Shown here piece by piece: positions 10,694 to 38,258 of a stretch of 64,000 bases of DNA. This DNA is from Patescibacteria group bacterium. GTDB taxonomy: Bacteria > Patescibacteriota > Microgenomatia > UBA8517. Position 1 is the stretch's first letter, and every line of letters begins with the position of its first letter. Made by a program: the position numbers and the translations under genes. The stretch is from positions 235,773 through 299,772 of the forward strand of contig JBGSJG010000004.1 of NCBI GenBank assembly GCA_041742135.1. Direction: 5' to 3'. The notes under the pieces were generated by a model. That model had not been told where the DNA came from. It made no database searches and worked only from the letters and a program-made list of their open reading frames with translations.

Positions 10694-13600
10694 ATGAAAT
10701 TGCTTGCCCAAAAAGTATTGTTTGATCAGGTTAAAATGCCCAAGTGGCAGTTTAAAGGTGTCTCAACCTTTATGCTTTTGCTGGGAGCTGTTGTTGGTTC
10801 ATATCTGACTACCACGAAGCTCTTGATTCCTTTGATCCGTGCTGCGGGAGATACTTACACTACTTGGGATTTTTCGGTTGACGAGAGCTTTACTCTGGGA
10901 GATTCGGACCAAGTTGAGGTTGCGAGCGATACCGCGGCAAGGCTCAAAGTAAGAACCTATGTTAGTGACGAAAATACTGCAGCGCTTTACCATCTCGACG
11001 AGACTGAAGGTACAATTGCTTCCGACTCTTCAGATAATGAGCTGAACGCAACAGCTACGGCAGCGAATTGGGAAGATGGAAACTTAAATAACGCATTTCA
11101 TTTTAATGGTAGCTCTGACAATATAACTGTTGCAGACGACGCGGCAATTTCTTTTACCGGGGCACACTCGATTGAAGCTTGGACAAAGTTTGATAACGCT
11201 TTCTCGGCTGGCAGCCATTTAACAAACCAGCCCGTTATTGATAAAGGTGATTACAGAGTTTATTTCAACAAAGAAACAGGAAAAATCAATTACGAGCTGA
11301 CTTCAAATGCACCAGCTTCTTGGGTTCAAACTGGAGGATCTGACTTTAACAATAGCTGGAGTTTTGCTACACACGATGCTGTTAAGTCGATCGCGGGAAG
11401 TAGCAGTAGCAATATCTATGTTGGGCTTGGAGGGGTCGGCCTAACAACTTTAACTCCAGATGAAGCAGAAGTTTGGCATTTTGACGGGACAGTGTGCGAA
11501 AATTGGTGGTGACGGAGTAAATCTTAGCTGGAGTTCCGGATACGACGAAGTTAACGCTTTATTGCTTGACGGCACAATCCTTTACGCGGCTGTGGGTAAT
11601 TCTGCGGGTGAAGCAGAGGTCTGGAAGTATGAAGGTGGTTCTTGGGAAAAGATCGCAGACAGTGCTCAACTTGGCAGCAGTCTTGAAAATGCTATGGCTT
11701 TGGCCCTTTATGATGACGGCGAGGGGGCCGATTTGTATGCCGGGACAGGCTACAGTAACGACGACGGAAGAGTGTTCAGATATCAAGACGACACTTGGAC
11801 TCAGATAGGTGGAAGGTACGCAGATGCCGGATATTCAAGTTGGGGGGATGCGGATAATGTGAATTACGTTTATTCCTTAGTTTCAGATGGCAATTATTTA
11901 TATGCTGGCCTTGGCGGTGCTGTAGATGAAGGGGAGCTTTGGAGATTTGATGGTTCCTTGGGGACAGATGGGCAGTGGGAGCGAATCGCGGGAACTGGGG
12001 CAGAGGCTAATTATCCATCAGGCTGGGGAGCTTCAGATGACATCGAATATGTTTTCTCTTTGGAAGTTGACGCTGATTATCTGTATGCCGGGCTTGGCTC
12101 CAACAATAACGATGGAGAAGTTTGGCGATTTGGCTTAATTTCTGAGACTTGGGAGCGGATTGGTGGGGATGGCGCGACCACTGCTGGTACTTGGGTAGCG
12201 GCAAGCGATAAGGAATCCGTACAAAGCTTGGCCGTTGACGGCAACTATCTTTATGCCGGAATTGGAAGTGGAGATTATGATGGTGAAGTTTGGAGATTTG
12301 ACCTAGTAACTGAGACTTGGGATCAAATTGGCGGTGATGGAACTTATACTAGCTGGAATAATACTCAGCGCGCGAGACGTGTGGATGCCCTAGAGATTAT
12401 CGGCGGCACACTTTACGCAGGAACATACAACTACACAGACAATGGGCAGTTGTGGACTTGGAATGGGGCGGATGATTGGACTCAGGTGGCCGGGGATTAT
12501 TTAGATAAGAGCTGGGGTTACTATGGAATCGATCGCGTAACTTCGATGACTGTAAGTGGGGAATATTTGTATGCTGGTTTGGGAATAACTGCAGGTGAAG
12601 CGCAAGTTTGGGAATATGATGGATCTGAATGGAGCATAATCGGAGGCCAAGGTGTAAACGGTAGCTGGCCTGCCGACACAATAGAGGCCGTTTATTCACT
12701 GACGGGGGGTGGAGGAGATGTTTATGCTGGGCTTGGAAACACCAATGATGATGGCCAGGTTTGGAGATACCAAGAAGGATCTTGGACTCAAATTGCAGGC
12801 AAAGGTGCTGACGCTCAATACACGGGCTGGGGAGACGCGGATAATGTAAATTATGTGTTCGCGCTCACCGAGGATGATACATATGTATATGCCGCGCTTG
12901 GTAACGGGACAAATGAAGGAGATGTGTGGAGATTTCATAAAACAAACGAGCTTTGGGAGCAAATTGCCGGAGCTGGGACAGTACTTGCAAATGGCAAGTG
13001 GACAAGTGGCTATGAAGAGGTCAACACACTTGTTGTGGACAAAAATTATCTGTATGCGGGAGTAGGTAGAAGCACTACCGCGGACAGTGATGTCTGGAGG
13101 TATGACAAAGCTGCTGAGACGTGGCTTCAGATAGGTGGGGATGGCAAAAACAACTGTTGGAGCAGTGGATTTGAGGCGCTTTACTCAATGGCATTTTACG
13201 AGGGAGACTTGTATGTTGGCCTCGGGATAAGCACGGATGATGCTGAAGTTTGGAGATGGGATGGAAGCAGTTGGAATATTGTAGGCGGCCAAGACAATGT
13301 AAATGGGAGCTGGGACAACACCACTTACGAGCGTGTACAGTCTTTGGTTGCTTTCAGTGGCAAGCTTTATGCAGGACTTGGAATGTTTAATACAATGAGC
13401 GTCTCGCTTCTTGAGAGGACACGTGAGGTGGGGCTCATGAAAGCAATGGGGATGAGGAGCCATGAAGTTCGTGAGTTATTTTTGACTGAGTCAATGACGA
13501 TGGGATTTTTTGGAGGACTGCTGGGGATTCTCATGGGAATAGGAATAGGCAAAGGCTTAAGCATATTAATTTCGGTAGTTGCCGTTTCGCGCGGTGTTGG

Positions 13601-13742
13601 CGTCGTAGATATCAGTTATCTCCCTGTTACTTTTTCAACTTTCATCATGGTTTTGTCCATCATCGTTGGCTTGGTTACTGGAATGTACCCTGCAAGGCGT
13701 GCCACAAGAATCTCCGCTTTGGACGCCCTAAGGTACGAATAG
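10694..13742 (+). pseudogene. Frameshifted gene made of two overlapping ORFs (10694-11512 and 11460-13742). It has an N-terminal TM, about 12 tandem ~55-aa repeats (beta-propeller-like) and a C-terminal partial FtsX/MacB permease domain.
   Basis: The C-terminus LLERTREVGLMKAMGMRSHEVRELFLTE...GMYPARRATRISALDALRYE is an FtsX-domain signature. The repeat consensus is YLYAGLG..GEVWRFD...W..IGGDG. The two frames join if one G is removed from gacGGGaca near 11487-11489. Confidence 0.5.
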
Positions 13743-13815
13743 GGTATTGACATCATAATGACTACTTTGATACTCTGTGTTATCAAACGATTAGTTTGAG
13801 TCATAGTAAACTTTA

Positions 13816-14025
13816 ATGTCTGACCCAAAGCAAATTAACCTCGAAAACCTTCCAGATCTTTTAACTGTCCGCGAAGTTGCTGAGATTCTTAGGGTCTCTC
13901 CTTTGACAATTAAAAGGTGGGGTAAAAAGGGCAAACTCCCTCCAATGCGAATAAACTCCCGCGGGGACCGCAGATATAAAAAGGAAGCAGTTTATGCACT
14001 TCTCGGCATGGAGCCAAAAGTGTGA
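13816..14025 (+). CDS. Excisionase/MerR-family helix-turn-helix DNA-binding protein
   Basis: LTVREVAEILRVSPLTIKRWGKKGKLPPMRINSRGDRRY is the HTH_17 (Xis) pattern. Confidence 0.6.
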   Translation: MSDPKQINLENLPDLLTVREVAEILRVSPLTIKRWGKKGKLPPMRINSRGDRRYKKEAVYALLGMEPKV

Positions 14026-14065
14026 TTTTGCGCTCCACGTAGTATAATACCTCAGCTTAGCTACC

Positions 14066-14998
14066 ATGAAGAAGTCCCTCATTTTGTTTCTTAGTATTTT
14101 CATATTGTCAGCTAATGTTGCGTTTGCTCAAACCGCAAGACCAACCGTAATGCCCATAGCCGAGGAGGCAACGGATTCAGCGGAAGCAACCGATTCGGCA
14201 ATTCTTGAAGCCACTGCGACTCCAAGCCCGACACCTGTGCCTTCGCCAAGGGTCGACATTACGCAATCGACAGAAGTTACAGCCGGAAGACTTGAACTTT
14301 TGCTCTACGAGCAGAAACTGGGCCCTGTTTTTCCGTTTAACGTAGTCAAATATGCGATCAGGGCAACAATTGACGCTGGAGTACCGCCTAACACTTTGGT
14401 GCTTCTACTTCTTTTGCCACTTGTCGTCGCGTTAATTGCAGCGGCACGGCACGTCATTGGCCTCCGTGGTTTTGGAATATTTTTACCTGCAGCCTTGGCT
14501 ATTGTGTTTGCGGCTATCGGTCCTGTGGTAGGAATTGGTTTATTCATGGTAATAGTGCTTGTCTCAACGTATTCCAGAATATTGCTTCGCACCCTCAAGC
14601 TTAAGCTTCAGTATTTGCCTCGCATGTCTTTGATGCTTTGGTTTGTAGTGGTTGGGGTCCTCTTGGCACTTTTTATGGCACCAATCATTCGCCATCCTGA
14701 TTTTACGAATGTCTCAATTTTCCCAGTCTTAATTTTGGTACTTTTGGCTGAGGACTTTTCTAAAGTGCAACTGGGCAAGTCTCCAAGAACCGCGATTATG
14801 CTAGCTTCTGAAACAATTGTTCTTTCCTTGGTGGCCTACATATTCTTAACTTTTGAGGGTCTTCAGGAATACGCTTTGATGTACCCGGAGACAATACTAA
14901 TTGGTGTTTTAATATTCGACTTTATAATGGGCCGTTACGTTGGCCTTCGCTTTTTTGAATTTTGGCGCTTTAGGCGGCTTATTATGAAGGAAAAATAG
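14066..14998 (+). CDS. Signal-peptide plus 7TM membrane protein. It resembles the 7TM module found with RimK-like ATP-grasp peptide ligases.
   Basis: An N-terminal signal peptide and a Thr/Pro/Ser linker are followed by 6-7 hydrophobic helices. It sits immediately upstream of the TIGR02291-like ATP-grasp gene. Confidence 0.5.
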   Translation: MKKSLILFLSIFILSANVAFAQTARPTVMPIAEEATDSAEATDSAILEATATPSPTPVPSPRVDITQSTEVTAGRLELLLYEQKLGPVFPFNVVKYAIRATIDAGVPPNTLVLLLLLPLVVALIAAARHVIGLRGFGIFLPAALAIVFAAIGPVVGIGLFMVIVLVSTYSRILLRTLKLKLQYLPRMSLMLWFVVVGVLLALFMAPIIRHPDFTNVSIFPVLILVLLAEDFSKVQLGKSPRTAIMLASETIVLSLVAYIFLTFEGLQEYALMYPETILIGVLIFDFIMGRYVGLRFFEFWRFRRLIMKEK

Positions 14999-15007
14999 AA
15001 AAATCTG

Positions 15008-16357
15008 ATGAAAGCTTCCGCTATTTTAGGGCTTAATGCCCGAGCACAAATTTCGTATAAGTACAATACAAACTGGGGTCGCTCAATTGCCAACTCTAAG
15101 CTTTTAACCAAAAAAGTTCTTAAAAAAGCTGGTATTCCAGCTCCTGAAATTTACAAGAAATTTCTAAAACCCGCTGATGTGCTTAATTACGATTGGGCAA
15201 AGCTGCCTGACTCCTTTGCTCTTAAACCAAGCAGAGGCCTTGGAGGCGAGGGCATTATTGTTATTAAAAAGCGTGCCAAAGACGGGTTAGGCTGGATAAC
15301 TACTTCAAGGAAGCGAATCAGGATTGAAGATTTGAAACTTCACACTCTAGATATTTTTGAAGGCGCGTATAGCTTGGAGCACGCGAGTGACATCGCATTT
15401 GCTGAAGAGTACGTTGGTCGCCACAAAGCTTTCAGAAGATACGCGTACCGCGGCACTCCAGACATTAGAATTGTGGTGTTTAATAAAGTGCCGGTTATGG
15501 CGATGCTTAGGCTTCCTACAAAAGACTCAGGTGGACGCGCAAATTTGCATCAAGGAGCGATCGGGGCGGGGATTGATATAGCAAGCGGTATTACCACAAA
15601 GGCGGTTTGGTACGGCTCACCCATCAAATATAAGCCGGGAACTCAGAGGAAGCTTCATGGTATTAGAATCCCAATGTGGACAAAGATATTGGAAATTGCG
15701 GTTATGTGCTCTGAAGCCAGCGGGCTTGGGTTTTTGGGCGTGGACGTGGTCTTGCATCCCGAGAAAGGCCCGATGATTTTGGAGCTTAATGCTCAGCCGG
15801 GTTTCCAGATTCAGCTGGCTAATGAGGCAGGCTTAAAAAAGCGATTAGACCGGGTAGAGGACTTAGAAGTCCGAGACGCTGAGCATGGAGTAAAAATTGC
15901 CAAGGTTTTATTTGCCGAGCGCTTTGCGGATCGTGTTAAGCTAGAAGAAGGTGTAAAGACCTTGAAGCCAATTGAAAAGGTCTATTTGTACGGATACAAA
16001 AGCAAGAAGAAAATTGCGATCGAGGCGAGAATTGACACGGGAGCCAGAAGAAGCTCGATAGACCGCAAACTTGCGAGCGAACTGGGGCTTTTAAATGATA
16101 ACAACGTTTTACTGCGCCGCGGTTATGCTTACGTTTCAGCCGCTGGAAGACAGTCTCGGCCTGTGATAGGGATTACCATGAGAATTGCGGGAAGAAAGCT
16201 TAATACAAGTGCATCAGTTGCGAATCGGGCAAGTATGTCGACAAAGCTTTTAATTGGCCGCAATGACTTGCAAGGATTTTTAGTTAATCCTGTACACGAT
16301 GAAATTGACGACTTGCCCAGAAAAGTTAAAAAACAAAATGATGCAAAACAATCCTAA
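15008..16357 (+). CDS. Alpha-L-glutamate-ligase-related ATP-grasp enzyme fused to a C-terminal retropepsin-like 'putative ATP-dependent Zn protease' domain
   Basis: The N-terminus ILGLNARAQISYKYN...KLLTKKVLKKAGIPAPEIY...ALKPSRGLGGEGI is a RimK-related ligase signature. The C-terminus IAIEARIDTGARRSSIDRKLASELGL...RIAGRKL is the DUF785/Zn_protease-like fold. Confidence 0.75.
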   Translation: MKASAILGLNARAQISYKYNTNWGRSIANSKLLTKKVLKKAGIPAPEIYKKFLKPADVLNYDWAKLPDSFALKPSRGLGGEGIIVIKKRAKDGLGWITTSRKRIRIEDLKLHTLDIFEGAYSLEHASDIAFAEEYVGRHKAFRRYAYRGTPDIRIVVFNKVPVMAMLRLPTKDSGGRANLHQGAIGAGIDIASGITTKAVWYGSPIKYKPGTQRKLHGIRIPMWTKILEIAVMCSEASGLGFLGVDVVLHPEKGPMILELNAQPGFQIQLANEAGLKKRLDRVEDLEVRDAEHGVKIAKVLFAERFADRVKLEEGVKTLKPIEKVYLYGYKSKKKIAIEARIDTGARRSSIDRKLASELGLLNDNNVLLRRGYAYVSAAGRQSRPVIGITMRIAGRKLNTSASVANRASMSTKLLIGRNDLQGFLVNPVHDEIDDLPRKVKKQNDAKQS

Positions 16358-17237
16358 AATTCTAATTTTTGTAGGTGGGCCAGTTGCAAAACTCGAGCCT
16401 TTCAAAGAGGTGGCAGGAGAGCTAAATGTTGACTTAACTGTAGCTTCTTTTTCGGATATAAGTTATAAGTCTGGGGAGGACAATTACACGCTCTCGGTGG
16501 GAGAGCAAGATATTGCAGATTTTGATGTGATTTATTTTCGAATGGTAGGGCGACGCCTTGAGGACGCGACGCTCGTGGCAAACTATGCCAAAAAGCACGG
16601 CATTAAAGTTTTTGACAGGCTATACCAAGATTCACTTTTAGTTCCCTCAAGTATCTCAAAAGCTCTTGAAACCGCAAAGATGATCGAGGCGGGTGTACCA
16701 ATGCCAAAGACTATTTTTGGTAGCCTTAAGTATCTTAGACATAAAGCACCCGAGCTATTCGGATTTCCATTTGTGCTCAAAAGCACTACCGGCAAAAAAG
16801 CCCGTGAAGTATGGGCGCCGAGTAGTGAAGAGGAGCTGTCCGAGCTTCTGGTTAAGCTACGCGAAATGGAAAAGTCAGGTGTGCGGTTTTTTGCTCAGGC
16901 ATTTACGCAAGCCTCTCAGCGCTACAGAGTATTTGTATTGGGCGGGCAAGTGGTAGCAGCTTTGACTCAGCCGACCAAGTGGAGAAAGCGTTTTAGCGAT
17001 AAGCTTGAGGGAGAAAAGGGCGTGGTGGAGGCTGATTCTCAAATGACTGAGCTTGCACTTGCCGCTGCAAATGCGGTGGACTTGGATATTTCTGGCGTGG
17101 ATATTCTGAAAATTGATAACTCAGGCGAGCTTGTGGTTATCGAGGCCAATGCAGCCCCATCGTGGAATCTTGTCAAAAAATACACAGACATTAACGTCGA
17201 GCGGGAGATCCTTTTATGGTTAGCCAAGCAGATTTAA
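16338..17237 (+). CDS. RimK-like ATP-grasp ligase (second copy)
   Basis: FVLKSTTGKKAREVW, ISGVDIL and LVVIEANAAPSW are ATP-grasp C-domain motifs. The start is taken at MMQNNPKILIF. Confidence 0.65.
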   Translation: MMQNNPKILIFVGGPVAKLEPFKEVAGELNVDLTVASFSDISYKSGEDNYTLSVGEQDIADFDVIYFRMVGRRLEDATLVANYAKKHGIKVFDRLYQDSLLVPSSISKALETAKMIEAGVPMPKTIFGSLKYLRHKAPELFGFPFVLKSTTGKKAREVWAPSSEEELSELLVKLREMEKSGVRFFAQAFTQASQRYRVFVLGGQVVAALTQPTKWRKRFSDKLEGEKGVVEADSQMTELALAAANAVDLDISGVDILKIDNSGELVVIEANAAPSWNLVKKYTDINVEREILLWLAKQI

Positions 17238-17833
17238 CCTTAAAACATTACCAGCGTAACTTTAAAAAGTTTGGGGTGGACCCAAAAGCTTTGTCATGGG
17301 GGAGCCGTGGAGCGGCACACCAACGCTTTCGCCAGATGTGGGCAGAGATAGACTTTAATAATAAGTCAGTTTTGGATGTTGGCTGTGGCTTTGGTGAGAT
17401 GGCGAAGTTTCTTCACAAGCGCTATAAAAACGTAAAATACACTGGAGTAGACATTGTTCCTGAGTTCATAGAAGAAGCACGCAAAGCTCATCCTTATTAC
17501 AATTTTGAGACACGCGATTACTTTAATAACCCAATAAACGCGCAATTTGACGTCGTTATGGCCTCAGGAACATTGAATTCTTATCTGGGGGATAAGAATA
17601 TTTCGTTTAGAAAAAACGCAATTAAGGTGATGTTTGAGCATAGTAAAAAAGTTTGCGTTTTTAACATGCTAGGAGGGCACCCGGCACTCGAGACCCTCGA
17701 AGGCTCAAACGTTTGGTATGCTGATAGTTTAGAAATTTTAGATTACTGCATGAGCTTGACTCGCCGCGTAATCCTTCGAGCAAACTACCACCCGACAGAC
17801 TTTACAATTTTTATGTTTCCTGTTAAAAAGTAG
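17216..17833 (+). CDS. Class I SAM-dependent methyltransferase
   Basis: VLDVGCGFGEM is motif I. It overlaps the preceding gene's end and is the fourth gene of the same plus-strand operon. Confidence 0.65.
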   Translation: MVSQADLTLKHYQRNFKKFGVDPKALSWGSRGAAHQRFRQMWAEIDFNNKSVLDVGCGFGEMAKFLHKRYKNVKYTGVDIVPEFIEEARKAHPYYNFETRDYFNNPINAQFDVVMASGTLNSYLGDKNISFRKNAIKVMFEHSKKVCVFNMLGGHPALETLEGSNVWYADSLEILDYCMSLTRRVILRANYHPTDFTIFMFPVKK

Positions 17834-17835
17834 AC

Positions 17836-18489
17836 ATGGCAAAAGATGGTGAAGGCAGACCTGAACTCGAAGAACGTGTTGCTGTGGTTGACGCATGGTT
17901 TAAACATTTGGCAGAGAATCACGTAGCAGGTGAAATCGATCGCGAGGTGCTCCGTGAAGTCCTCGAATCGTGTGGGGCAAACTTCGACATTGAGCCGTCC
18001 GCGAAAGAAAAGCTGGGCAGAGAGCATTACTCTTCAAATGCTCTAAGAAAGTCTGTGGCTGCGGTCTGGGGAGATAAGTACGACAGATTTGTTAGTTGGG
18101 TGAAAGGATATGTCAATCAAATGCAAGACGAAGGGGATGAAGTCCCAGCTTTGGAATCGGGTAAAAAACACATTGGATTTACTGGACTGCTGGAGGAATT
18201 AACTGCTTATGCTGCAACTGACGAGGAAGAATTTAGCGCTACAGATTTTGCTACGCGAGTCACGGCACGAGCTTGGAATGGCTACATGAGATACGAGCTT
18301 GGAGACAAAAGGAAAGACGTTAGGATGCATATAATTGTCCCAGGATACAACACTGTAGTCTATGAATTTGATGGACAAGAGGGAGACACTCGGACTGGCG
18401 AAATGCCTTTTGCCTCGCTCGGTTTCCCACCTAAATTTGCAACAGCAGCTTGGGAAGAAATAACTTCTTGGGGCACTAAAAAACCCTGA
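17836..18489 (+). CDS. Hypothetical protein, last gene of the ATP-grasp operon
   Basis: It is a 217-aa ORF starting 2 nt after the methyltransferase stop. No recognisable motifs. Confidence 0.4.
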   Translation: MAKDGEGRPELEERVAVVDAWFKHLAENHVAGEIDREVLREVLESCGANFDIEPSAKEKLGREHYSSNALRKSVAAVWGDKYDRFVSWVKGYVNQMQDEGDEVPALESGKKHIGFTGLLEELTAYAATDEEEFSATDFATRVTARAWNGYMRYELGDKRKDVRMHIIVPGYNTVVYEFDGQEGDTRTGEMPFASLGFPPKFATAAWEEITSWGTKKP

Positions 18490-18523
18490 TTTTCATCAGG
18501 GTTTAATTAGCTTCGAAGCTAAA

Positions 18524-19667: not shown

Positions 19668-20288
19668 TTACTGAAATATCTTTCGTATTTTTACTTCTTG
19701 GTACAGGAAGTAGCCCAGAAGTGTTCCAGATAAGGAGAGCGAAAATATAGAGAAATAAAGACCCATTGTCCCCAATCGGGTAAACGAAAATATAAAACCA
19801 GACAAAAGCAAATAAATTGATGATAAAAATAAACTGGTCACGAGCTGGTATGGATATGTCCTATTATATATTTGTGCAACTGCAAAAATGATACCCACTG
19901 GTATTGCAGAGAGGGAGATTGGAAGATTAGTTAATAGTTCAAACGTCGAAAGTAATTCTAATAGAGCTAGGCTGAAAAGGGCAGATATATACCCGGAGTA
20001 TATTAAGAAATGGCTAATCGGACTATGAAATAAGTGAGTGGCTATAAATTGTGTTTTAAACGCAGTAACCCTTCGCAGATTTGGTAAGGTAAATGCTTCG
20101 AGGACAACAGATGTTATGTAAATGCCGCTCCCGTAGCAGGTCAATCCTGTGACAAGTAAAAAAAATGAAGAAATTAATATAGAAATTGAAGCAGCTGGAA
20201 ATTTAAAATGCAAGATGCTGATAAACATAATTTGAAACAGCATGTATACAGCTGAAATAAGAAAGATATTGGCAAGAGTTAAAATCAT
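19668..20288 (-). CDS. Hypothetical polytopic membrane protein, about 33 % GC, inserted between rplA and rplJ
   Basis: It is a roughly 207-aa hydrophobic ORF starting from the internal Met MILTLANIFL. The ORF finder's 20477 start overlaps rplA and its first 60 aa look non-coding. Its GC is markedly lower than the flanking genes. Confidence 0.4.
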   Translation of the reverse strand: MILTLANIFLISAVYMLFQIMFISILHFKFPAASISILISSFFLLVTGLTCYGSGIYITSVVLEAFTLPNLRRVTAFKTQFIATHLFHSPISHFLIYSGYISALFSLALLELLSTFELLTNLPISLSAIPVGIIFAVAQIYNRTYPYQLVTSLFLSSIYLLLSGFIFSFTRLGTMGLYFSIFSLSLSGTLLGYFLYQEVKIRKIFQ

Positions 20289-20466
20289 AACTCGCCGTTG
20301 AGAAAACCCTCCCTCGCCATTTACTTGATGCTTCACTGTTTTGTTGCGAAAGTAAATATAAAGCGAGTTCCTATGAGTGTACCTAAAGATAAAATTAAAA
20401 GTACACGCTCGTGAATCAACATATACCTTATTTAAGCATGAAATGCTTTTGATCGTAAGAAGGTGT

Positions 20467-21222
20467 TTACTCAACAACCAGCTTCACAGAAGGGCCCATC
20501 GTGGCTTTTACGTACGCTTTGACGATTTGCTTTCGATTAATTGCATCCAAAAGCGCATTCAGGTTTTCAGTAAGTTCGCTGTCCTTCATGCTCAATTTGC
20601 CAACAACTGTGTGAATTAATGGAGCTGATTTTTCGGTTTTGATAGTGACTTTGCTTACATTAAATTTCGCGGCGTCTTTTTTGTCTTTGATAACAGTTCC
20701 GTTTTTGGGATTAGGCATAAGGCCGCGGGGACCCAAGACTCGGGCGTAGGAAACTAACTTTGGCATCATCTCAGCTGTAGCCAAAAGGATATCAAAATCA
20801 ATCTTTCCACTTTCAAGTTTTTTGATTGTGTTTTCATCCGCCACTTCAACAACTTTAATTCTGCCTGCTTGATGGGGAAGCTCGACGTTTACTGCGAGGC
20901 CTTCTTTTCGGACAACCAAATGTAGCTCAAGTGTTCCATCAAAACTTGATAGGGAAGTCTCGCGAGCTAAAGTAATAGCTTGGCTAATCTGGTAAAGCTT
21001 GGCGTGGTCAACTTTGGCTTTTGCCTCAAGATAATTTTTGCTACGTACTCTTGCTTTTTTGAGCTTTTTTGCGGCTTCAGACTCAGAAATGACTGGAGTT
21101 GCATCGATCATGGCTACACGCTCTCCGCCTTTTTGGCCGGCAACATGAATTTTCTCTTTTTTCTCTTTCTTTTCTTTTTTGGCGTCTAGGTCACCAATGA
21201 ATGCTGTTTTAGTTTTTCCCAT
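20467..21222 (-). CDS. rplA: 50S ribosomal protein L1
   Basis: It shows L1 family similarity throughout, with a K/E-rich N-terminus. Confidence 0.9.
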   Translation of the reverse strand: MGKTKTAFIGDLDAKKEKKEKKEKIHVAGQKGGERVAMIDATPVISESEAAKKLKKARVRSKNYLEAKAKVDHAKLYQISQAITLARETSLSSFDGTLELHLVVRKEGLAVNVELPHQAGRIKVVEVADENTIKKLESGKIDFDILLATAEMMPKLVSYARVLGPRGLMPNPKNGTVIKDKKDAAKFNVSKVTIKTEKSAPLIHTVVGKLSMKDSELTENLNALLDAINRKQIVKAYVKATMGPSVKLVVE

Positions 21223-31928: not shown

Positions 31929-32650
31929 TTAATGAAGTCAAGATTAATTTCCCTTCGATAACTCGAGTGTTTTCGTAGCCACTTTTGAGTCTGAATCATA
32001 ACGCTTTCCCACTTATTGATATAACTTTGGTAAGTCATTGGCTCCTCGCTGAGCGATAGATAGAGATCTTTACGCGTCTTTGGAGGTTTGTAAACAACAA
32101 TCAATTTTAACGTGTTCTTTCTCTCAAGGATTTCTTTTGACACGGATCTGACATGTTGAATTTCTAGTTCCTTAAGTGTTCGAGCAATCGATTTAGGGAA
32201 GAAAGGGTTATTAATATAGCTAAGAACCGGGGCAAGCATTGTTAGGTATTCCTTCTGAAAGACTACTGTGTTGTCTTGGTCGAGACTCTTCTCTTTACGA
32301 TAGAAATCTTTTTGAGAAGGGGTAAACGGAATAAGCTGGTTATCTGAATCAAATAATAATCTTATATTGCTAACCTCTTTGAGAAATTCAGTTACGGTCT
32401 GTAAATTCTTGTTTAGTAATTTGTTTTCTATTCCAAACTTATTGTAAAGAAGTAATGCTAAAAATAGCGTTGTCAAAGCGGCTAGTGAAGAAATGATGTT
32501 TGCCAAACTGTCAATTTTTTGCAAAGCTTGGCCTTCAGAATAAAAAACGACACTAAAAGCCAGACTGGCTAGAATTATTGTAGAAATGAGTAGTAAACTC
32601 TTCATGTAGTATTTGTATTGCAGGCCCGGAGGGAATCGAACCCCCAACAA
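31925..32650 (-). CDS. Hypothetical membrane-anchored protein
   Basis: 241 aa, with an N-terminal TM. Its 5' end abuts tRNA-Trp. Confidence 0.35.
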   Translation of the reverse strand: MLGVRFPPGLQYKYYMKSLLLISTIILASLAFSVVFYSEGQALQKIDSLANIISSLAALTTLFLALLLYNKFGIENKLLNKNLQTVTEFLKEVSNIRLLFDSDNQLIPFTPSQKDFYRKEKSLDQDNTVVFQKEYLTMLAPVLSYINNPFFPKSIARTLKELEIQHVRSVSKEILERKNTLKLIVVYKPPKTRKDLYLSLSEEPMTYQSYINKWESVMIQTQKWLRKHSSYRREINLDFIK

Positions 32651-32691
32651 AGGTTTTGGAGACCTCCGTTATACCATTTAACTACGGGCCT
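32621..32691 (-). tRNA. tRNA-Trp (anticodon CCA)
   Basis: It has the cloverleaf fold AGGCCCG/CGGGCCT acceptor, D-arm GTTA/TAAC, anticodon loop CTCCAAA, T-loop TTCGATT and discriminator G. No CCA is encoded. Confidence 0.85.
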
Positions 32692-32718
32692 AGGTAAAAC
32701 TAGTCTATTTTACCTTAT

Positions 32719-33114
32719 TTATTCTTCTGACGGAAATTGGTACACATAGTTCAGGGATTGAATTTGATTAGCAAATTTTTCTGCCTGCTTTTCTGAAATC
32801 AGGGCACTACTCACACCCATTTCCAAAAACCAAAGAAGTTTATTGGTTATGGCGCGCCGAACAACGGGATCTGTAATCATCGGGTCAGCTAGTACGGACA
32901 TTCCTTTACTGCAATGAAATTCTCTGCAAGTTTCGGGCTGATCAGAGGAGCCGTGTAAATCACAGCCCTCTGGTGTCATATGCTTACATTTTCCTATCTC
33001 AGGAGGCGGGGGTTCGAAACAGCACAAGTTGCACCTCTTGGCATCTTCTGTCAGACATCCAAGCCCACCAACAATATTGGGTACATTTGGGTGTTGAGAC
33101 TCAACCATCAGCAT
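32719..33114 (-). CDS. Cys-rich protein, YkgJ-like (C-x2-CC) putative metal-binding domain
   Basis: GCLTEDAKRCNLCCF...CKHMTPEGCDLHG...CREFHCS. Confidence 0.4.
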   Translation of the reverse strand: MLMVESQHPNVPNIVGGLGCLTEDAKRCNLCCFEPPPPEIGKCKHMTPEGCDLHGSSDQPETCREFHCSKGMSVLADPMITDPVVRRAITNKLLWFLEMGVSSALISEKQAEKFANQIQSLNYVYQFPSEE

Positions 33115-33134
33115 CTGTTATAATACTCTTCCTT

Positions 33135-33656
33135 ATGTCAGGAGAAAGAGGAATATTTTATGTGCCGCTATCAGCGGTTCCAAACACGGAGCGTCCTTCT
33201 AAAGATGAGTTTCGCCAAGTGCATTACCGAGGGGCAGGAGAAATACTTGCAATCAGACATCTGATTAATACTACGCGTAGCCCTCAGTACCCTATAGATT
33301 CTGAGCAGATTGAGCGAATCGTTGCCGCATCGACTAACCCTGATTGCGTGGTGGTAATGTCTGCTCAAAACAATGTAATGACTGGGCTTGGAGTAGGAGA
33401 AAAGCATGGAGACTCGGTCCTTTTGACTGACTTGGTTTTAAACCCTGGGCGACAAGGCTCTGGGGCAAGGGCGAAAGGGATAATTAACGAAATGGTGGCT
33501 GCAGCGGATGCGCAGGTGTCAGCAATTGTTTGTACAGATGCTTACATACAATTCTTTACCGAGCTTTATCCTGATAGTCAGCCCGTGACATTTGAAAGTG
33601 ATGAAGGGGATATGTTCATGATTTTTTGCAAAACTACCTCCAACCATGTCAGCTGA
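33135..33656 (+). CDS. GNAT-family N-acetyltransferase
   Basis: VLNPGRQGSGARAKGIINEM matches the GNAT motif A (Q/R-x-x-G-x-G/A). The start is moved to the internal ATG at 33135 to remove an opposite-strand overlap. Confidence 0.5.
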   Translation: MSGERGIFYVPLSAVPNTERPSKDEFRQVHYRGAGEILAIRHLINTTRSPQYPIDSEQIERIVAASTNPDCVVVMSAQNNVMTGLGVGEKHGDSVLLTDLVLNPGRQGSGARAKGIINEMVAAADAQVSAIVCTDAYIQFFTELYPDSQPVTFESDEGDMFMIFCKTTSNHVS

Positions 33657-34269
33657 ACACGACAAACGTCCTCGGAGACATCAAACGCCAATATTAAGTA
33701 AAATTGCTGAATCATTTGGGCGTATTGATACTGTTGTGAGTGAATCCGGAGCGCCAGTGTATACGACACCTAAGGACGCAGAGTCTGTTGCTATTGCCCT
33801 TGAAAGTTCTTTGTTTCGGGATTGGTACAGAGCACCTTCAATGGATGGTGGAGCCATTCTTATAGCTGTAGAGAATCTATCAGAATACGAGCCTTTCGAT
33901 TCTTTACGTGCTTTGGGGGAGAGCTTTGTCGATGGAAATATTGCACCTGATTTATCAGGAAAATTTTTTGCCCATCGAGTAAACGATCTTTGTCGAGAGA
34001 TTTCTGTCGACTGGAAATACAACGGGGGGTTGCAGGCATTAAACATAATAGGTAACTTGCAAAAGCGTGCGGTGGAGGCGGTTGTACTTAACCCAATGGC
34101 CATGGAATGGTTGTTTACTGATCAGCCCAACCCAAGCAAGGAGGATATTGAGCCGTTAGTCGCTGAGGCTACGATTCTCTTTGCGGCCGCAGCGCTAACT
34201 GAAGCGATGATGAATAAAATGGGTAGACAAATGGATGAGGAAGATCATCCAGGGGCGGGTGAAAACTAG
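33646..34269 (+). CDS. Hypothetical protein
   Basis: 207-aa ORF. Confidence 0.4.
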   Translation: MSAEHDKRPRRHQTPILSKIAESFGRIDTVVSESGAPVYTTPKDAESVAIALESSLFRDWYRAPSMDGGAILIAVENLSEYEPFDSLRALGESFVDGNIAPDLSGKFFAHRVNDLCREISVDWKYNGGLQALNIIGNLQKRAVEAVVLNPMAMEWLFTDQPNPSKEDIEPLVAEATILFAAAALTEAMMNKMGRQMDEEDHPGAGEN

Positions 34270-34281
34270 GAGGGATTTGTG

Positions 34282-34863
34282 TTAATCGTCTTTTTCGTCA
34301 ATCTCCAAATCTGAAACAATTCCACAAACATCTGTGATTACCAATGTATTCCCGTCTTGCTTGAAAACTGGTTTTACGTTCCAATTAATAACCGATATAT
34401 TGTTAGCACCAGTTTCTTCTCTCCACCTGCGGCCCAAGTCAGTTAGCGGGTCAGGTTCAGATAAATCCCGAGGGTGCTCTTGGCGATATTCATATTCTGC
34501 TTTAAAGAGCGTGTCTCCTTCAACAAATTCAGACACGGTGCAAGGGCATGTTTCGCCTTTGGTCGACATAGGCATTGGCGAGATCCCCACTTTTTCGATT
34601 CTCACTATCTTGATTGCAAAATCAAATTCTTGGCCGTTTACGCTCATTCTGATCATGTCGCCATCATGCTTTTCAGCTAATGCATTCGTCAAATCGGCAT
34701 ATTGTCTTAATTTTTCCATAGGGACTTCTTTGTAAGCTTTTAACGCTACTCTTCTGCTTGTCTCGGGTTCAATTCCTAAATACAAGCGAGACTCCGAGGC
34801 TTCAAGGGGCGCATATCGAAAATCAGAAGAATATTGACTTGGATCTATGTCTGTTTCAGACAT
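34282..34863 (-). CDS. Hypothetical protein
   Basis: 193-aa ORF ending at the rpmG stop. Confidence 0.4.
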   Translation of the reverse strand: MSETDIDPSQYSSDFRYAPLEASESRLYLGIEPETSRRVALKAYKEVPMEKLRQYADLTNALAEKHDGDMIRMSVNGQEFDFAIKIVRIEKVGISPMPMSTKGETCPCTVSEFVEGDTLFKAEYEYRQEHPRDLSEPDPLTDLGRRWREETGANNISVINWNVKPVFKQDGNTLVITDVCGIVSDLEIDEKDD

Positions 34864-35033
34864 TACTTAAGCTTAACGCTCTCTTTGTGGTCAGTTTGTT
34901 TTTTGCAAACTTTGCACCATTTTTTGAGGACCAACTTTTCCTCCATATTAACCTTGTTGCGAGTTGTGACGTAGTTTTGGTTTTTGCACCCAGCGCAAAC
35001 CATTGCTACTATTTCTCGATTTCCTTTTGCCAT
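34863..35033 (-). CDS. rpmG: 50S ribosomal protein L33
   Basis: MAKGNREIVAMVCAGCKNQNYVTTRNK...KKWCKVCKKQTDHKE has paired CxxC zinc-ribbon motifs. Confidence 0.8.
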   Translation of the reverse strand: MAKGNREIVAMVCAGCKNQNYVTTRNKVNMEEKLVLKKWCKVCKKQTDHKESVKLK

Positions 35034-35075
35034 AAGCGGTATTGTAGCAGAAAAGTCTGAAGCTAGCAAAAGTGA

Positions 35076-35146
35076 GCCTGGAAGTGGAATCGAACCACCG
35101 ACCCCTTTCTTACCAAGAAAGTGCTCTGCCCCTGAGCTATCCAGGC
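35076..35146 (-). tRNA. tRNA-Thr (anticodon GGT)
   Basis: Acceptor GCCTGGA/TCCAGGC and anticodon loop TTGGTAA. Confidence 0.85.
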
Positions 35147-35168
35147 TAGTAGCTGCTATTATAACATT

Positions 35169-36059
35169 ATGAAGTCAGTTCTTTTCTTCCTATTTTCCTT
35201 CGTATCGCTTGCGTTATTGGCGGTTTTATTTACACCCATTGGTCAGGTCGATGTGGATAAACCAGAAAGTGTAAGTGTAATTTTTGGCGGCGATGTAATG
35301 CTTGGCCGCAGTGTAATGACTACAGCTCTTCGGGCCAACGACCCAACTTATCCATTTCATAATATTGCCGATACGTTGTCAGAAGTTGATATCGCTTTTG
35401 TTAATCTGGAGAACCCAGTTGTAGACAACTGTCCTGAGCGTGTCGAAGGACTGGTTTTTTGTGCTGATCCCAAAATGACCCAAGGATTGGTTTATTCTGG
35501 GGTTGATATTGTAAATTTGGCAAACAACCACACGCTAAATTACGCCAAAGCCGGTTTTGAATCTACCAAGGCATATCTTTCAGATCAAAATATTAAATAC
35601 ACCGGAGACGGACAGCTGGTTGTCGTGAGCAAAAATGGCACGAGCTTTGGTTTTCTGGGCTTTGAAAAATCCCAGCAAGCAAGCCCTGCGCTAAGCCCCA
35701 CTGAAAGAAACTTAATTGAAGACTCAAATCAAAAAGTTGATGTACTAATCGTAGCCATGCACTGGGGAGTGGAATACAAAGATACTGCTTTGCCGGGAGT
35801 TACAAAACTGGCATACGAACTGGTCGATTTGGGAGCCGATGTGGTGGTTGGCCACCATCCGCACTGGGTTCAGAACATCGAAACGTACAAAGGCAAAAGA
35901 ATATATTACAGTTTGGGCAACTTAGTGTTCGATCAGATGTGGAGCGAGGAAACGAAGAAAGGCTTGTTGGTAAAATTGACTTTTGAAGGTGGGGAAGTGG
36001 TAGGGGAAGAATTAATAAATACTTATACCCACAAACTGGGCCAACCAGTCATTCGATAA
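35169..36059 (+). CDS. CapA-family (poly-gamma-glutamate biosynthesis-type) metallophosphoesterase
   Basis: N-terminal TM, IFGGDVMLGRSV, GHHPH. Confidence 0.7.
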   Translation: MKSVLFFLFSFVSLALLAVLFTPIGQVDVDKPESVSVIFGGDVMLGRSVMTTALRANDPTYPFHNIADTLSEVDIAFVNLENPVVDNCPERVEGLVFCADPKMTQGLVYSGVDIVNLANNHTLNYAKAGFESTKAYLSDQNIKYTGDGQLVVVSKNGTSFGFLGFEKSQQASPALSPTERNLIEDSNQKVDVLIVAMHWGVEYKDTALPGVTKLAYELVDLGADVVVGHHPHWVQNIETYKGKRIYYSLGNLVFDQMWSEETKKGLLVKLTFEGGEVVGEELINTYTHKLGQPVIR

Positions 36060-37119
36060 ACATCGCATCTCCAAAGCTATAAAATCTATATTTGTTTTCA
36101 ATGGCTTCTTTGTAAGCTATTCCTGCCACCGAGGAGTTGAAATCGATAAATTCATTGTCTGTGCCTGTCTGCGCAGGCAGGTTTGGTTTAGAAACAAAAG
36201 CACTGATAAGGGCCAAGAGGGTGGAGTGCGGAAGATGAAAGTTGGTAATTAGGCCATCAACAAATTTAAATTTGTACGGTGGGTAAATAAATATATCTGT
36301 TTCACCTGTTTTTGGCGTTAATTTGTTATTAACGGCAGCACTTTCGAGAACTCTTGTTGTAGTAGTTCCGACTGATATTATTCGTTTGCCGGCAGCCTTA
36401 GCTGCGTTTAGGCGGCTAGCTGTTTTTGGGTCTAAACTGAACCATTCAGAGTGCATTTTGTGATTAGCTAGGCTTTTCTCCTTGATAGGCAAAAATGTTC
36501 CAGCACCAACGTGGAGTGTTACGTATTCCATCTCTACGCCCTTATTTTTAAGTTTATCAATAAGTTCAGGTGTAAAATGAAACCCAGCAGTAGGAGCTGC
36601 GGCACTTCCTGATTCTTTGGCATAAACGGTTTGGTATTTCTCTCTCACTTGGTTTTCGCTAAGTTTTGTATCAATGTAGGGAGGAAGAGGTGTCAGCCCG
36701 CTTTTGGCAAGAATATCCATGAGCTCTTGCCCTTCAGTAAACACCTCTATTTGTACCGAATCAAAGGACTTTTTCGTAACTATTGCGTAAAAATTAGGGA
36801 ATAAGATAGTTCCACCAATTGGGGGTATGCCTTTCCCCAATATTTCCCAAACATTATTGCCAAGATTTTTAAGAAAGAGGACTTCAACTTTGCCACCACT
36901 TTCTTTTTTTCCGATTGCGCGCGCGGGAAACACTTTGGTGTTATTGAATACCAAAACGTCACGCGATGTCAGTAAATCACTGACATCTAAGAAATGTTTG
37001 TGCGAGATTGATGCAGTTTCGCGGTTTATGACAAGTAGTTTCGAATGATCCCTGGGAGACACAGGAGAGTTGGCAATTAATTCGCGAGGCAGATCGTAAT
37101 TAAGCTGAGAAAGAAGCAT
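36049..37119 (-). CDS. queA: S-adenosylmethionine:tRNA ribosyltransferase-isomerase
   Basis: LNYDLPRELIANSPVSPRDHSKLLV and the 356-aa length. Confidence 0.85.
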   Translation of the reverse strand: MLLSQLNYDLPRELIANSPVSPRDHSKLLVINRETASISHKHFLDVSDLLTSRDVLVFNNTKVFPARAIGKKESGGKVEVLFLKNLGNNVWEILGKGIPPIGGTILFPNFYAIVTKKSFDSVQIEVFTEGQELMDILAKSGLTPLPPYIDTKLSENQVREKYQTVYAKESGSAAAPTAGFHFTPELIDKLKNKGVEMEYVTLHVGAGTFLPIKEKSLANHKMHSEWFSLDPKTASRLNAAKAAGKRIISVGTTTTRVLESAAVNNKLTPKTGETDIFIYPPYKFKFVDGLITNFHLPHSTLLALISAFVSKPNLPAQTGTDNEFIDFNSSVAGIAYKEAIENKYRFYSFGDAMFIE

Positions 37120-37126
37120 CTATCTA

Positions 37127-37387
37127 CTAGTGCCGCTCGCCATAGCCAAAAGTACGAATTTCCTCTCTGCGAGTTGCTGCAGTTTTAACTTCAATCAAGG
37201 TCATGGCTCTTTCTTGGGCGGGCGTAACAGTGTCCACTGGACGTGGGTTTGGCTCGCCAATCCACACCCGTGCCGCTTCTATGCGCGCTTGTCTTTTTTC
37301 TTCGTCGGTCATGACAACCTCAACTGGTTCTTGCGCAACATGAGCGTTGGTTCTACTAAAACGGCCAATAACTCGTCCGAATTCCAT
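37127..37387 (-). CDS. Hypothetical small protein
   Basis: 86 aa. Confidence 0.3.
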   Translation of the reverse strand: MEFGRVIGRFSRTNAHVAQEPVEVVMTDEEKRQARIEAARVWIGEPNPRPVDTVTPAQERAMTLIEVKTAATRREEIRTFGYGERH

Positions 37388-37438
37388 TATGGCTCGAATT
37401 ATACCAAATTGCTGGTTTTATATCAAAATATCGTCAGT

Positions 37439-38041
37439 TTATTGCTTTTGCTTTGGAAATACTGCATGCAAATTTTCGGCAAGAAATTGCTCTACGCATG
37501 ATAGTTGCAGACACGTGAGTACGGTGCTGCTTGGCGCGCTTAGCCTTTCGTACTGTCCTTGTAATCTTTTTTGAAGCTCGCGCTCTACTGTCTCCCAGGT
37601 TTCCATTCTGCCAAGATCGTCTAGGTCTTCACGGTAGATCTGCACCATGTGTGAGGCTGCTTGAGATTCTACGATTTTAAGAGCAACCTCGCCCGATGGT
37701 TTTTCGTGTCTGATTATCCAATCTCTAAAAGCTCGATATTGATGGTCTTCGGGTAATGAGTCGAAATATGAAATTCTCTCCATGATCGCTACTTTAAAAA
37801 ACGGGGGCATGCAAGCAGCCGGTGTGTTATTAAACATTATTGGTTCTAAATTCTGAAGAGTGGGGCATGAACAAAGTGATTGGGATATTGCAAAAAGCAT
37901 ACTGTTGATACTTCCGGGCGCGCAATCTTCCATTTCAGCGACAGCCAACGTACTCCAGGTGCTCATTGCTGTTTTTATCTGTACGGCAGCATAAAGATCT
38001 ACGGCAGCCAAACTATCGATTGATGGAATCTCGATGCTCAT
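37439..38041 (-). CDS. Hypothetical protein
   Basis: 200 aa. Confidence 0.4.
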   Translation of the reverse strand: MSIEIPSIDSLAAVDLYAAVQIKTAMSTWSTLAVAEMEDCAPGSINSMLFAISQSLCSCPTLQNLEPIMFNNTPAACMPPFFKVAIMERISYFDSLPEDHQYRAFRDWIIRHEKPSGEVALKIVESQAASHMVQIYREDLDDLGRMETWETVERELQKRLQGQYERLSAPSSTVLTCLQLSCVEQFLAENLHAVFPKQKQ

Positions 38042-38066
38042 ATTAACAATAAAAAGGAGGGCAGTT

Positions 38067-38087
38067 GTGTGCCGAGATTAGGATTCG
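38067..38087. repeat. 21-bp direct repeat copying the 3' end of tRNA-Tyr (the second copy is 38143-38163, inside the tRNA)
   Basis: The exact string gtgtgccgagattaggattcg occurs twice, 76 nt apart. The upstream copy lacks the rest of a tRNA. Confidence 0.7.
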
Positions 38088-38145
38088 CCGTGCAAAACAA
38101 ACTCCCGATGCGCTATCGAATCATAATAAGGCACGAGCAAAGCGT

Positions 38146-38231
38146 GTGCCGAGATTAGGATTCGAACCTAAGCAGGCCTTTCGGCCGCCAGATTTACAGT
38201 CTGGTGCGATTGTCCACTCCGCCATCTCGGC
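38146..38231 (-). tRNA. tRNA-Tyr (anticodon GTA), type II with a long variable arm
   Basis: Acceptor GCCGAGA/TCTCGGC, anticodon loop CTGTAAA and variable arm GCGGCCGAAAGGCCTGC. Confidence 0.85.
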
Positions 38232-38258
38232 CCTTCAAGTTCTTCAGGGTAAACTTTG

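Follow-up and report, generated by a model that had tools for sequence, protein, structure and literature searches.

We examined a 64,000-nucleotide stretch of a contig from a Patescibacteria (candidate phyla radiation, CPR) group bacterium (JBGSJG010000004.1 of assembly GCA_041742135.1; hereafter the window), with a focus on a cluster of six genes at positions 13816 to 18489. In order, these genes encode a helix-turn-helix (HTH) protein, a seven-transmembrane (7TM) protein, a fusion of an ATP-grasp ligase with a retropepsin-like protease, a second ATP-grasp ligase, an S-adenosylmethionine (SAM)-dependent methyltransferase, and a 217-residue protein. The open reading frame (ORF) listing of the window places all six on the plus strand in the same direction, with spacers of 40, 9, and 2 nt and two overlapping junctions (20 and 22 nt), in agreement with the tight packing reported in a preliminary description of this DNA. 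The 20-nt overlap, between the fusion and the second ligase, follows from placing the start of the latter at 16338, rather than at 16299, on the basis of an alignment with homologues; the 22-nt overlap, between the second ligase and the methyltransferase, spans 17216 to 17237. Intergenic gaps of at most 40 nt leave no room for a precursor-peptide ORF, and the earlier failure to see one is thus borne out.

A system of this kind is said to have been predicted originally, by computation, by Iyer et al. in 2009. The preliminary description credited it with no experimentally defined function, which is out of date after the work of Lormand et al. (2025, mBio; PMC12239564), who named and genetically characterized RloABC in Pseudomonas aeruginosa. 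There, RloC is a cytoplasmic ATP-grasp protein and RloA a secreted retropepsin, which cuts stretches of eight or more glutamates. A triple rloA mutant has osmotic, antibiotic, biofilm, and cell-shape defects that are suppressed when rloB or rloC is deleted, so that the protease is implied to remove a product of RloB and RloC (PMC12239564). In the same study, 96% of RloB hits are proteobacterial (PMC12239564). Our point of comparison is a bona fide rloA-rloB-rloC operon from Pseudomonas hunanensis (locus L035), which scores 342 for RloA1 (cut-off 280), 1071.7 for RloB (cut-off 900), and 564 for the RloC model TIGR02291 (cut-off 314.2). This operon verifies for proteobacteria what the preliminary description had stated of most genomes, namely that separate ligase and retropepsin genes flank a 7TM-inactive-transglutaminase protein.

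The 7TM protein and the ligase–retropepsin fusion

The N-terminal domain of the fusion protein scores 213 bits against PF14397 (cut-off 31.4) over residues 13 to 284 and shares 42% identity with the RloC of L035 over residues 1 to 304 (E 7e-76), so that the glutamate-ligase relationship first proposed for this region holds. Against the RimK-family model TIGR00768, the same domain reaches only 46 bits (cut-off 143.4), and a phmmer search of the PDB with the whole protein matched only a 40-residue stretch of RimK. The ATP-grasp catalytic residues K73, D246, E259, and N261 are intact in the window's protein; among 139 fusions, K73, D246, and E259 are each invariant and N261 is kept in 137. The fusion protein is strongly basic (pI 10.05, with 79 Lys and Arg versus 45 Asp and Glu), and it contains no signal peptide, transmembrane segment, or hydrophobic segment; its N terminus aligns with that of RloC.

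The C-terminal domain had also been described as retropepsin-like, and this assignment is confirmed, with homology shown by profiles since the Pfam evidence is weak and PDB sequence searches failed. The score against PF05618 (Zn_protease) is 27.4 bits (cut-off 27), and no individual stretch passes; the matches to Zn_protease/RimB-like, gag-asp_proteas, Asp_protease_2, and RloA3 models are all marginal; and a PDB sequence search with this domain alone returned nothing up to E 10. A profile built from the C-terminal domains of the 139 fusions instead detects, in 39 proteobacterial rlo loci (E 1e-6 to 1e-16), the stand-alone RloA, whose gene lies ~1.5 kb 5' of that for RloC, and hhalign matches this profile to an RloA profile that includes PDB entry 9g58 with a probability of 99.5% (E 1.1e-22). 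The motifs brought into register are ARIDTGARRSS with AKLDTGAKTAS, QSRPVI with TARPVI, and VANRASMSTKLLIGRNDL with LTDRSAFQYPLLIGSEAL. In the window's protein these comprise the catalytic D343-T-G-A (D343 codon at 16034 to 16036) and G417-R418-N, together with the basic residues R341, R384, and R407. R341, D343, R384, and R407 align with K46, D48, R114, and R137 of P. aeruginosa RloA, respectively; mutations of D48, R114, and R137 abolish RloA activity or complementation, with both poly-Glu cleavage and complementation lost when R114 or R137 is mutated (PMC12239564). Thr or Ser at position 344 and G417 are found in all 139 fusions, G345 in 138, D343 and R407 in 136 each, and R384, R418, and Arg or Lys at position 341 in 135 each. 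With catalytic residues kept in at least 135 of the 139 fusions, both halves of the protein look catalytically competent and are under selection.

The 7TM protein aligns only with the membrane module of RloB. It scores 76.7 bits against PF14402 (7TM_transglut; cut-off 25) over residues 112 to 305 only, covers only positions 312 to 506 of the 508 positions of the NCBIfam RloB model, and is 29% identical to the RloB of L035 (E 4e-17) over RloB residues 312 to 508 only. The earlier assignment to a 7TM-transglutaminase family therefore stands for the membrane part but not for the enzyme-derived part, as neither Pfam, the RloB model, nor the alignment reveals a transglutaminase domain. The best 120 homologues, 285 to 335 residues in length, likewise have PF14402 as their sole domain; CPR 7TM proteins are 214 to 336 residues long (with the exception of one of 512 residues in L027), compared with ~510 residues for RloB. 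From a hydropathy profile and an AlphaFold2 (AF2) model (predicted local distance difference test, pLDDT, 73.7), the first 108 residues consist of an N-terminal signal or anchor helix and a ~90-residue low-complexity linker rich in Thr, Pro, and Ala (pLDDT below 50 for residues 19 to 56), followed by seven transmembrane helices. The cytoplasmic tail is basic and carries a conserved GRYxGLRxxExxRFR motif, which is kept in 78 homologues and, in the form G[RK]YxG[LY]RxxExxRF[RK], is common to CPR 7TM proteins and RloB; the extreme C terminus is variable. The C terminus of the 7TM protein was considered as an acceptor for the ligases and rejected, since its extreme end is variable and its conserved part is basic.

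Fusion homologues fall into more than 100 protein clusters (63 to 89% identity, 425 to 466 residues) with the identical pair of Pfam domains, several of which are named Candidatus Woesebacteria; it is on such named homologues, at 63 to 79% identity, that we base the description of the window as Woesebacteria-like. A locus scan with one genome per species returned two groups, the first with full-length fusions (Woese-, Levy-, Kaiser-, and Peregrinibacteria, Altimarinota, and a goat-gut bacterium) and the second with unfused RloC (Pseudomonas and many other proteobacteria). The first group comprises 31 loci (L001 to L028, L077, L081, and the window), including L028, in which the domains are split over three genes. 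Comparison of gene order across these related genomes, as suggested in the preliminary description, finds the 7TM gene immediately 5' of the fusion gene in all 31 (9 nt apart in the window). Both the number of protein clusters and this conserved order place the fusion architecture beyond chance. A window-type RimK-like ligase lies directly downstream of the fusion in 14 of the 31 loci, with two copies in seven of these, and other ATP-grasp ligases are found there in four further loci; the methyltransferase is present in six, and a convergent rplL-rplJ pair lies downstream in ten. Upstream neighbors are not conserved (DsbA, undecaprenyl-diphosphate synthase [UppS], an ABC transporter, T4SS-pilin arrays) and are housekeeping-like, and we did not count them in the system. 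The operon of five genes originally put forward thus has a core, the 7TM–fusion pair, that is universal among the 31 loci, and the remaining genes, for the second ligase, the methyltransferase, and the 217-residue protein, are a subclade-specific add-on (Table 1).

The relatives also shuffle their domains. Proteins of 790 to 801 residues in L026 (5947-8319), L027 (4817-7222), and L077 (7989-10361) join an RloC-type ligase and a retropepsin-like domain to a C-terminal MATCAP/QEGLA domain, an HExxH metallocarboxypeptidase (PF08014, 215 bits; TIGR02421). Their retropepsin motif is degraded (INTAK, VDTTK, and INTTR among the three), with the Asp replaced by Asn in L026 and L077 and DTG by DTT in L027, and the hydrolase role appears to have been swapped from an aspartic endopeptidase to a metallocarboxypeptidase. 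L014 and L024 harbor a separate MATCAP-related gene 3' of the fusion, recognized with a profile of the appended domain and followed by two to three more ATP-grasp genes; a MATCAP gene was looked for in the window and not found. In L028 (6796-9377), from a metagenome-assembled genome (MAG) of Rubrobacteraceae, the 7TM protein carries a signal peptide and a retropepsin at its extracellular N terminus, at the position of the RloB transglutaminase, and the same locus encodes a stand-alone RloC-type ligase and then a second, secreted retropepsin. Evolution has therefore repeatedly joined the hydrolase to the ligase or to the membrane protein; along with the 7TM–fusion adjacency in 31 of 31 loci, these rearrangements make ligase–hydrolase coupling a selected feature. 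Three types of such "Rosetta stone" fusions (RloC-RloA in CPR, RloA-RloB in the Rubrobacteraceae locus, and RloC-retropepsin-MATCAP of the Peregrinibacteria type) argue that ligase, hydrolase, and 7TM protein form a physical unit that works on a single molecule, with hydrolysis possible on either side of the membrane.

Table 1. Features of the cluster, with positions in the window
Feature	Position	Strand	Basis
Promoter-like site, TTGACA, 16 nt, GATACT	13747..13774	+	10/12 consensus matches; consensus match only
HTH protein, 69 aa, pI 10.2, small MerR/excisionase/BldC-like	13816..14025	+	HTH_17, MerR_1
7TM protein, 310 aa, RloB-like, without transglutaminase domain	14066..14998	+	PF14402, RloB alignment
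Fusion protein, 449 aa	15008..16357	+	ORF listing; PF14397 N-terminal, retropepsin C-terminal
RloC-type ATP-grasp amidoligase domain of the fusion, aa 1 to ~305	15008..15922	+	PF14397, RloC alignment
RloA/RimB-type retropepsin domain of the fusion, aa ~323-433	15974..16306	+	hhalign against RloA profile
Second ATP-grasp ligase, 299 aa, RimK/LysX/MptN-like	16338..17237	+	PF08443, homologue-aligned start
Class I SAM-dependent methyltransferase, 205 aa	17216..17833	+	Methyltransf_25, _31, _12, _11, _23
217-aa protein, acidic, pI 4.9	17836..18489	+	Uncharacterized family, Pfam-negative
Inverted repeat, perfect 9 bp: AAACCCTGA, loop TTTTCA, TCAGGGTTT	18481..18504	.	Read straight from the sequence

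The accessory ligase, methyltransferase, and 217-residue protein

The second ligase is RimK-like, as first described, with 66.6 bits against PF08443 (RimK; cut-off 21) and 103.3 bits against TIGR00768, below the cut-off of 143.4; its best PDB matches are the RimK entries 5zct and 4iwx (E ~2.5e-9), followed by LysX. It matches the ligase domain of the fusion with E 0.001 only, so that the two ATP-grasp enzymes represent different families and neither is a recent duplicate of the other. The methyltransferase gives weak PDB matches to small-molecule methyltransferases of the 5jdy type and to the peptide N-methyltransferase BamL.

A word-indexed search with the 217-residue protein returned one homologue, and exhaustive HMMER searches returned 79 representatives of ~200 residues. 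AF2 predicts a mostly helical fold with a small C-terminal sheet (pLDDT 94.6; predicted template modeling score 0.90), for which Foldseek finds no match in the PDB or BFVD (best E 0.5 and 0.7, respectively); the family likewise has no PDB sequence-profile match and no Pfam hit in 43 members. Its conserved positions are mainly Trp, Gly, Ala, and Phe and are not of the catalytic type. What is new here is a tightly linked family of ~200-residue proteins with a confidently predicted fold and no relatives detected in these searches.

A hidden Markov model of this family places a member directly 3' of the methyltransferase gene in L007, L008, and L009. An independent metagenome scan seeded solely on the 217-residue family (a 10-sequence alignment) gave 11 loci; in 10 of these the homologue adjoins the methyltransferase gene, the RimK-like gene, or both, and a methyltransferase is present in nine. 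Where the upstream sequence suffices (L085, L086, L088, and in part L091), the order is 7TM, fusion, RimK-like ligase, 217-residue homologue, and methyltransferase; the last two are swapped relative to the window in most of the seeded loci but are still adjacent. The persistence of this linkage despite changes in order argues that the RimK-like ligase, the methyltransferase, and the 217-residue protein form a functional trio, with the last a dedicated partner of the other two. The preliminary description had offered this protein as a candidate substrate or partner. The partnership holds; as an acceptor for RimK-type ligation we rejected it, since its C terminus is variable and non-acidic, unlike that of a RimK acceptor with a C-terminal glutamate.

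Two further families occur in relatives. In L081 (8961-9371) and L082 (7625-8035), a 136-residue SET-domain protein, a likely protein lysine methyltransferase, is encoded directly after a 205-residue methyltransferase, at the place of the 217-residue gene. In L014 (12320-13872) and L024 (13235-14026), a recurrent family of ~260 residues without a Pfam match follows the extra ATP-grasp genes 3' of the fusion and MATCAP genes and may be another accessory component.

Proposed function and competing explanations

We interpret the locus as a variant of the Rlo system in Woesebacteria-like Patescibacteria, in which an enzyme docked on the 7TM protein would build and trim an acidic peptide in the cytoplasm; we give this interpretation a probability of roughly 55%. 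The basic fusion enzyme (pI 10) would dock on the 7TM protein at the conserved cytoplasmic tail of the latter, a basic and amphipathic segment, and the ligase domain of the enzyme would use ATP to form an acidic α-linked peptide, most likely poly-α-L-glutamate, either free or grown on the C terminus of an acceptor. The retropepsin domain would dimerize and cut the chain endoproteolytically, which would set its length, release the product, and prevent a toxic build-up, much as RimB does for RimK and, judging from genetics, RloA for the product of RloB and RloC. The 7TM protein would then pass the product to the cell surface or couple its synthesis to the state of the membrane, and the accessory trio probably extends or decorates the same product or modifies a second acceptor. 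An acidic substrate is favored by the alignment of R341, R384, and R407 with RloA K46, R114, and R137 and by the strongly basic character of the fusion.

The window shares with Rlo systems an RloC-type ATP-grasp enzyme, the RloB 7TM module with its tail motif, and an RloA-type DTG retropepsin with its basic pocket residues, with all three functions in one operon; the two likely also share a logic, in which the protease counteracts the product of the ligase and the membrane protein. The window differs in that its protease is fused to the C terminus of a cytoplasmic ligase, whereas RloA is a secreted stand-alone protein with a signal peptide; in that its 7TM protein lacks the periplasmic inactive transglutaminase domain of RloB; in its CPR rather than proteobacterial host; and in the addition of an ATP-grasp ligase, a methyltransferase, and a protein of novel predicted fold.

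Precedent for coupling the two activities comes from the Rim system. RimB is a poly-Glu-specific retropepsin that binds RimK and stimulates its poly-α-Glu synthesis, and RimBK is a proteolytically active RimB–RimK hybrid with the protease at the N terminus (Little et al. 2025, J Biol Chem; PMC11957791). The window resembles RimK/RimB/RimBK in what would be a cytoplasmic α-L-glutamate ligase paired or fused with a poly-Glu-cleaving, retropepsin-like endopeptidase that modulates its output, and its second ligase is RimK-like. In RimBK, however, the protease precedes a true RimK, whereas in the window it follows an RloC-type ligase, and this reversed domain order, together with the mere 46 bits of that ligase on the RimK model, suggests that the two fusions arose independently. 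A membrane partner is also absent from the Rim system, and the RimK substrate S6 is not implicated in the window. Neither PMC12239564 nor PMC11957791 mentions an RloC–retropepsin fusion or Patescibacteria, and we found no literature linking Woesebacteria with these enzymes.

Several observations weigh against an Rlo-type function. The locus departs from three defining features of Rlo systems, in that it has no transglutaminase, no secreted protease, and a TIGR02291 score for the fusion of 264.8 bits, below the curated equivalog cut-off of 314.2 (Pseudomonas RloC, 564), and it does not have the RimBK architecture either. The CPR retropepsin is more compact than RloA and lacks a ~20-residue insert in which several asymmetric poly-Glu contacts of RloA lie (R92, K95, K97, and R99). 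It is also cytoplasmic here but extracytoplasmic in Pseudomonas and in the Rubrobacteraceae locus, so that cleavage takes place elsewhere than in Rlo, perhaps for a different purpose. A Foldseek search with the 7TM model finds no similarity to known transporters or channels (best E 1.5), which leaves export without structural support. To our knowledge, no RloC-type ligase has a demonstrated substrate or product, and the glutamate specificity suggested here would be an extrapolation from RimK and from the cleavage preference of RloA. Finally, the RimBK of D. psychrophila did not glutamylate the RpsF of P. fluorescens SBW25 when tested (PMC11957791), so that a fused ligase need not act like RimK.

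The main rival to this interpretation, to which we assign about half as much credence, is that both ligases add glutamates or other residues to the C terminus of a specific protein (a ribosomal protein, a membrane protein, or the 217-residue partner), that the retropepsin erases them, and that the locus is a membrane-tethered switch of the RimK/RimB kind. RimK polyglutamylates ribosomal protein S6, and RimB takes the tail off again (PMC11957791); the best PDB matches of the second ligase are RimK entries, and the cluster is convergent to rplL-rplJ in 10 loci. MATCAP-type C-terminal carboxypeptidases fused or adjacent to the fusion in five CPR loci, and the SET-domain protein methyltransferase in the place of the 217-residue gene in L081, fit the modification of a protein tail as well. 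The cluster, however, offers no candidate acceptor with an acidic C terminus, the ends of both the 7TM and the 217-residue protein being variable and non-acidic, and rpsF was not located in the window. Because the ribosomal genes are convergent and not co-transcribed with the cluster, their adjacency may be plain synteny.

A more ambitious and more doubtful proposal is a membrane-anchored writer–eraser, in which the RloC–retropepsin fusion and the RimK-type ligase would build and trim α-glutamyl chains, the methyltransferase would cap or neutralize them, and the 217-residue protein would be a new carrier or adaptor. If true, this would give bacteria a counterpart of the tubulin-tail code of eukaryotes, and a modified poly-glutamate surface layer might arise in organisms without a periplasm. 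In the tubulin C-terminal tail cycle, TTL and TTLL ATP-grasp ligases add residues to acidic tails, and MATCAP and CCP peptidases remove them. The likeness, which is one of analogy only, lies in the MATCAP-family (PF08014) domains fused to or beside the CPR fusion in relatives; the window itself has no MATCAP gene, the TTL Pfam model is only marginal in relatives, and we know of no tubulin-like substrate. PgsBCA/CapBCA provides a second analogue as a membrane-associated, ATP-dependent system of poly-γ-glutamate synthesis, coupled to export and with a dedicated degrading enzyme. It differs in its Mur-ligase-type fold and γ linkage, as opposed to the ATP-grasp fold and presumed α linkage in the window, and has no homology to the window's genes.

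Slightly less probable again is a role in the envelope, with the ATP-grasp enzymes adding amino acids, at the membrane, to a cell-wall, glycan, or lipid intermediate, the 7TM protein acting as a flippase or scaffold, and the protease maturing an envelope protein. The Pfam name of PF14397, "sugar-transfer associated ATP-grasp," suggests as much, as do the Pseudomonas rlo phenotypes in cell shape, sensitivity to wall-targeting antibiotics, and hypo-osmotic lysis (PMC12239564) and the undecaprenyl-diphosphate synthase gene upstream in four loci. Upstream neighbors vary, however, and are housekeeping-like (DsbA, ABC transporter, UppS), none of the 31 loci has a linked glycosyltransferase or Mur-type gene, and the retropepsin retains the basic pocket residues tied to poly-Glu recognition.

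Very improbable is a pathway for a ribosomally synthesized and post-translationally modified peptide of the graspetide type, in which the ATP-grasp enzymes would cross-link a precursor peptide, the protease remove its leader, the methyltransferase tailor it, and the 7TM protein export it. The combination of these four activities and the weak similarity of the methyltransferase to the plantazolicin N-methyltransferase BamL invite this explanation, but the similarity to BamL comes from the generic SAM-binding region (E ~1e-5), the ligases belong to the RimK/RloC branch rather than to the graspetide ligases, and gaps of 40, 9, and 2 nt between otherwise overlapping genes leave no space for a precursor. 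Least credible is that the cluster is mobile-element cargo or an anti-phage defence island, as its excisionase-type HTH gene might prompt one to think: models for excisionases and MADS-MAD1 recognize the HTH protein, and that for MAD2 weakly recognizes the methyltransferase, but the PADLOC hits (mad1 with 38 bits to the HTH and mad2 with 34 bits to the methyltransferase core) concern generic domains only, the 7TM, fusion, RimK-like, and 217-residue proteins have none, we saw neither an integrase or transposase nor a flanking tRNA or repeats, the cluster does not stand out in GC content, and the conserved synteny of relatives, which occupy the same rplL-rplJ position with fusions only ~58 to 66% identical, effectively refutes it.

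An Rlo variant of the proposed kind would be of value chiefly as a model in which Rlo chemistry is tractable, since synthesis and cleavage would sit in one soluble 449-residue polypeptide and direct in vitro reconstitution is therefore realistic; in addition, the hosts have very small proteomes in which to seek acceptors.

Boundaries and genomic setting

The promoter-like site in the 73-nt gap 5' of the HTH gene (Table 1) is a possible operon promoter by its match to the consensus; across the region, six such sites were found compared with 8.1 expected in shuffled sequence and are thus not in excess. The HTH protein scores 44.3 bits against HTH_17 and 43.3 bits against MerR_1 and matches excisionase models too; against the BldC model, it reaches 45.7 bits, under the cut-off of 77. 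Its gene does precede the cluster, as had been noted, but is tied to it only loosely, with homologues (76% identity) directly 5' of the 7TM gene in L008 and L009 and 2 to 3 kb upstream in L006 and L007; the protein is a possible local regulator. At the other end, the inverted repeat overlaps the stop codon of the last gene and sits between the operon and the convergent rplL. Although absent from the listing of a consensus scan, it is a probable terminator for both convergent units. GC content is 0.44 to 0.45 over the cluster, compared with 0.39 to 0.48 over the window.

Upstream of the cluster (10694-13742, plus strand), two ORFs in different frames, of 272 and 760 residues, share 53 nt. In the larger, Kelch-type β-propeller repeats are followed by just the C-terminal FtsX permease module, and the two ORFs may represent one ABC permease with a large extracytoplasmic domain that a frameshift has interrupted; L001 has a homologue of the FtsX end at the equivalent place upstream of the 7TM gene. 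Downstream, an ORF of 269 residues (19668-20477, minus strand), which starts with TTG, matches no Pfam family, and is hydrophobic and apparently multi-pass, is wedged between rplJ and rplA and breaks the usually contiguous rplK-rplA-rplJ-rplL cluster. In L081, the equivalent place is taken by a gene on the opposite strand that encodes 468 residues, with no Pfam hit on record. The sole Rfam and ARAGORN hits in the 64 kb are four tRNA genes on the minus strand at 32620 to 38331 (Trp-CCA, Thr-GGT, Tyr-GTA, and Thr-TGT).

Many MAGs that encode CPR-type fusions (39 to 62% identity; loci L002 to L004, L009 to L013, L015 to L017, L020, L024, and L025) come from records titled "uncultured Gammaproteobacteria" or "Pseudomonadales." Several of these MAGs share the Woesebacteria-like rplL-rplJ synteny, and the taxonomy given in the record titles looks unreliable. 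In L015 (1589-3956) and L016 (4662-6895, minus strand), tandem arrays of four to six small paralogues (110 to 206 residues) directly precede the 7TM gene, and the one array member scanned gave a match to the Pfam family T4SS_pilin.

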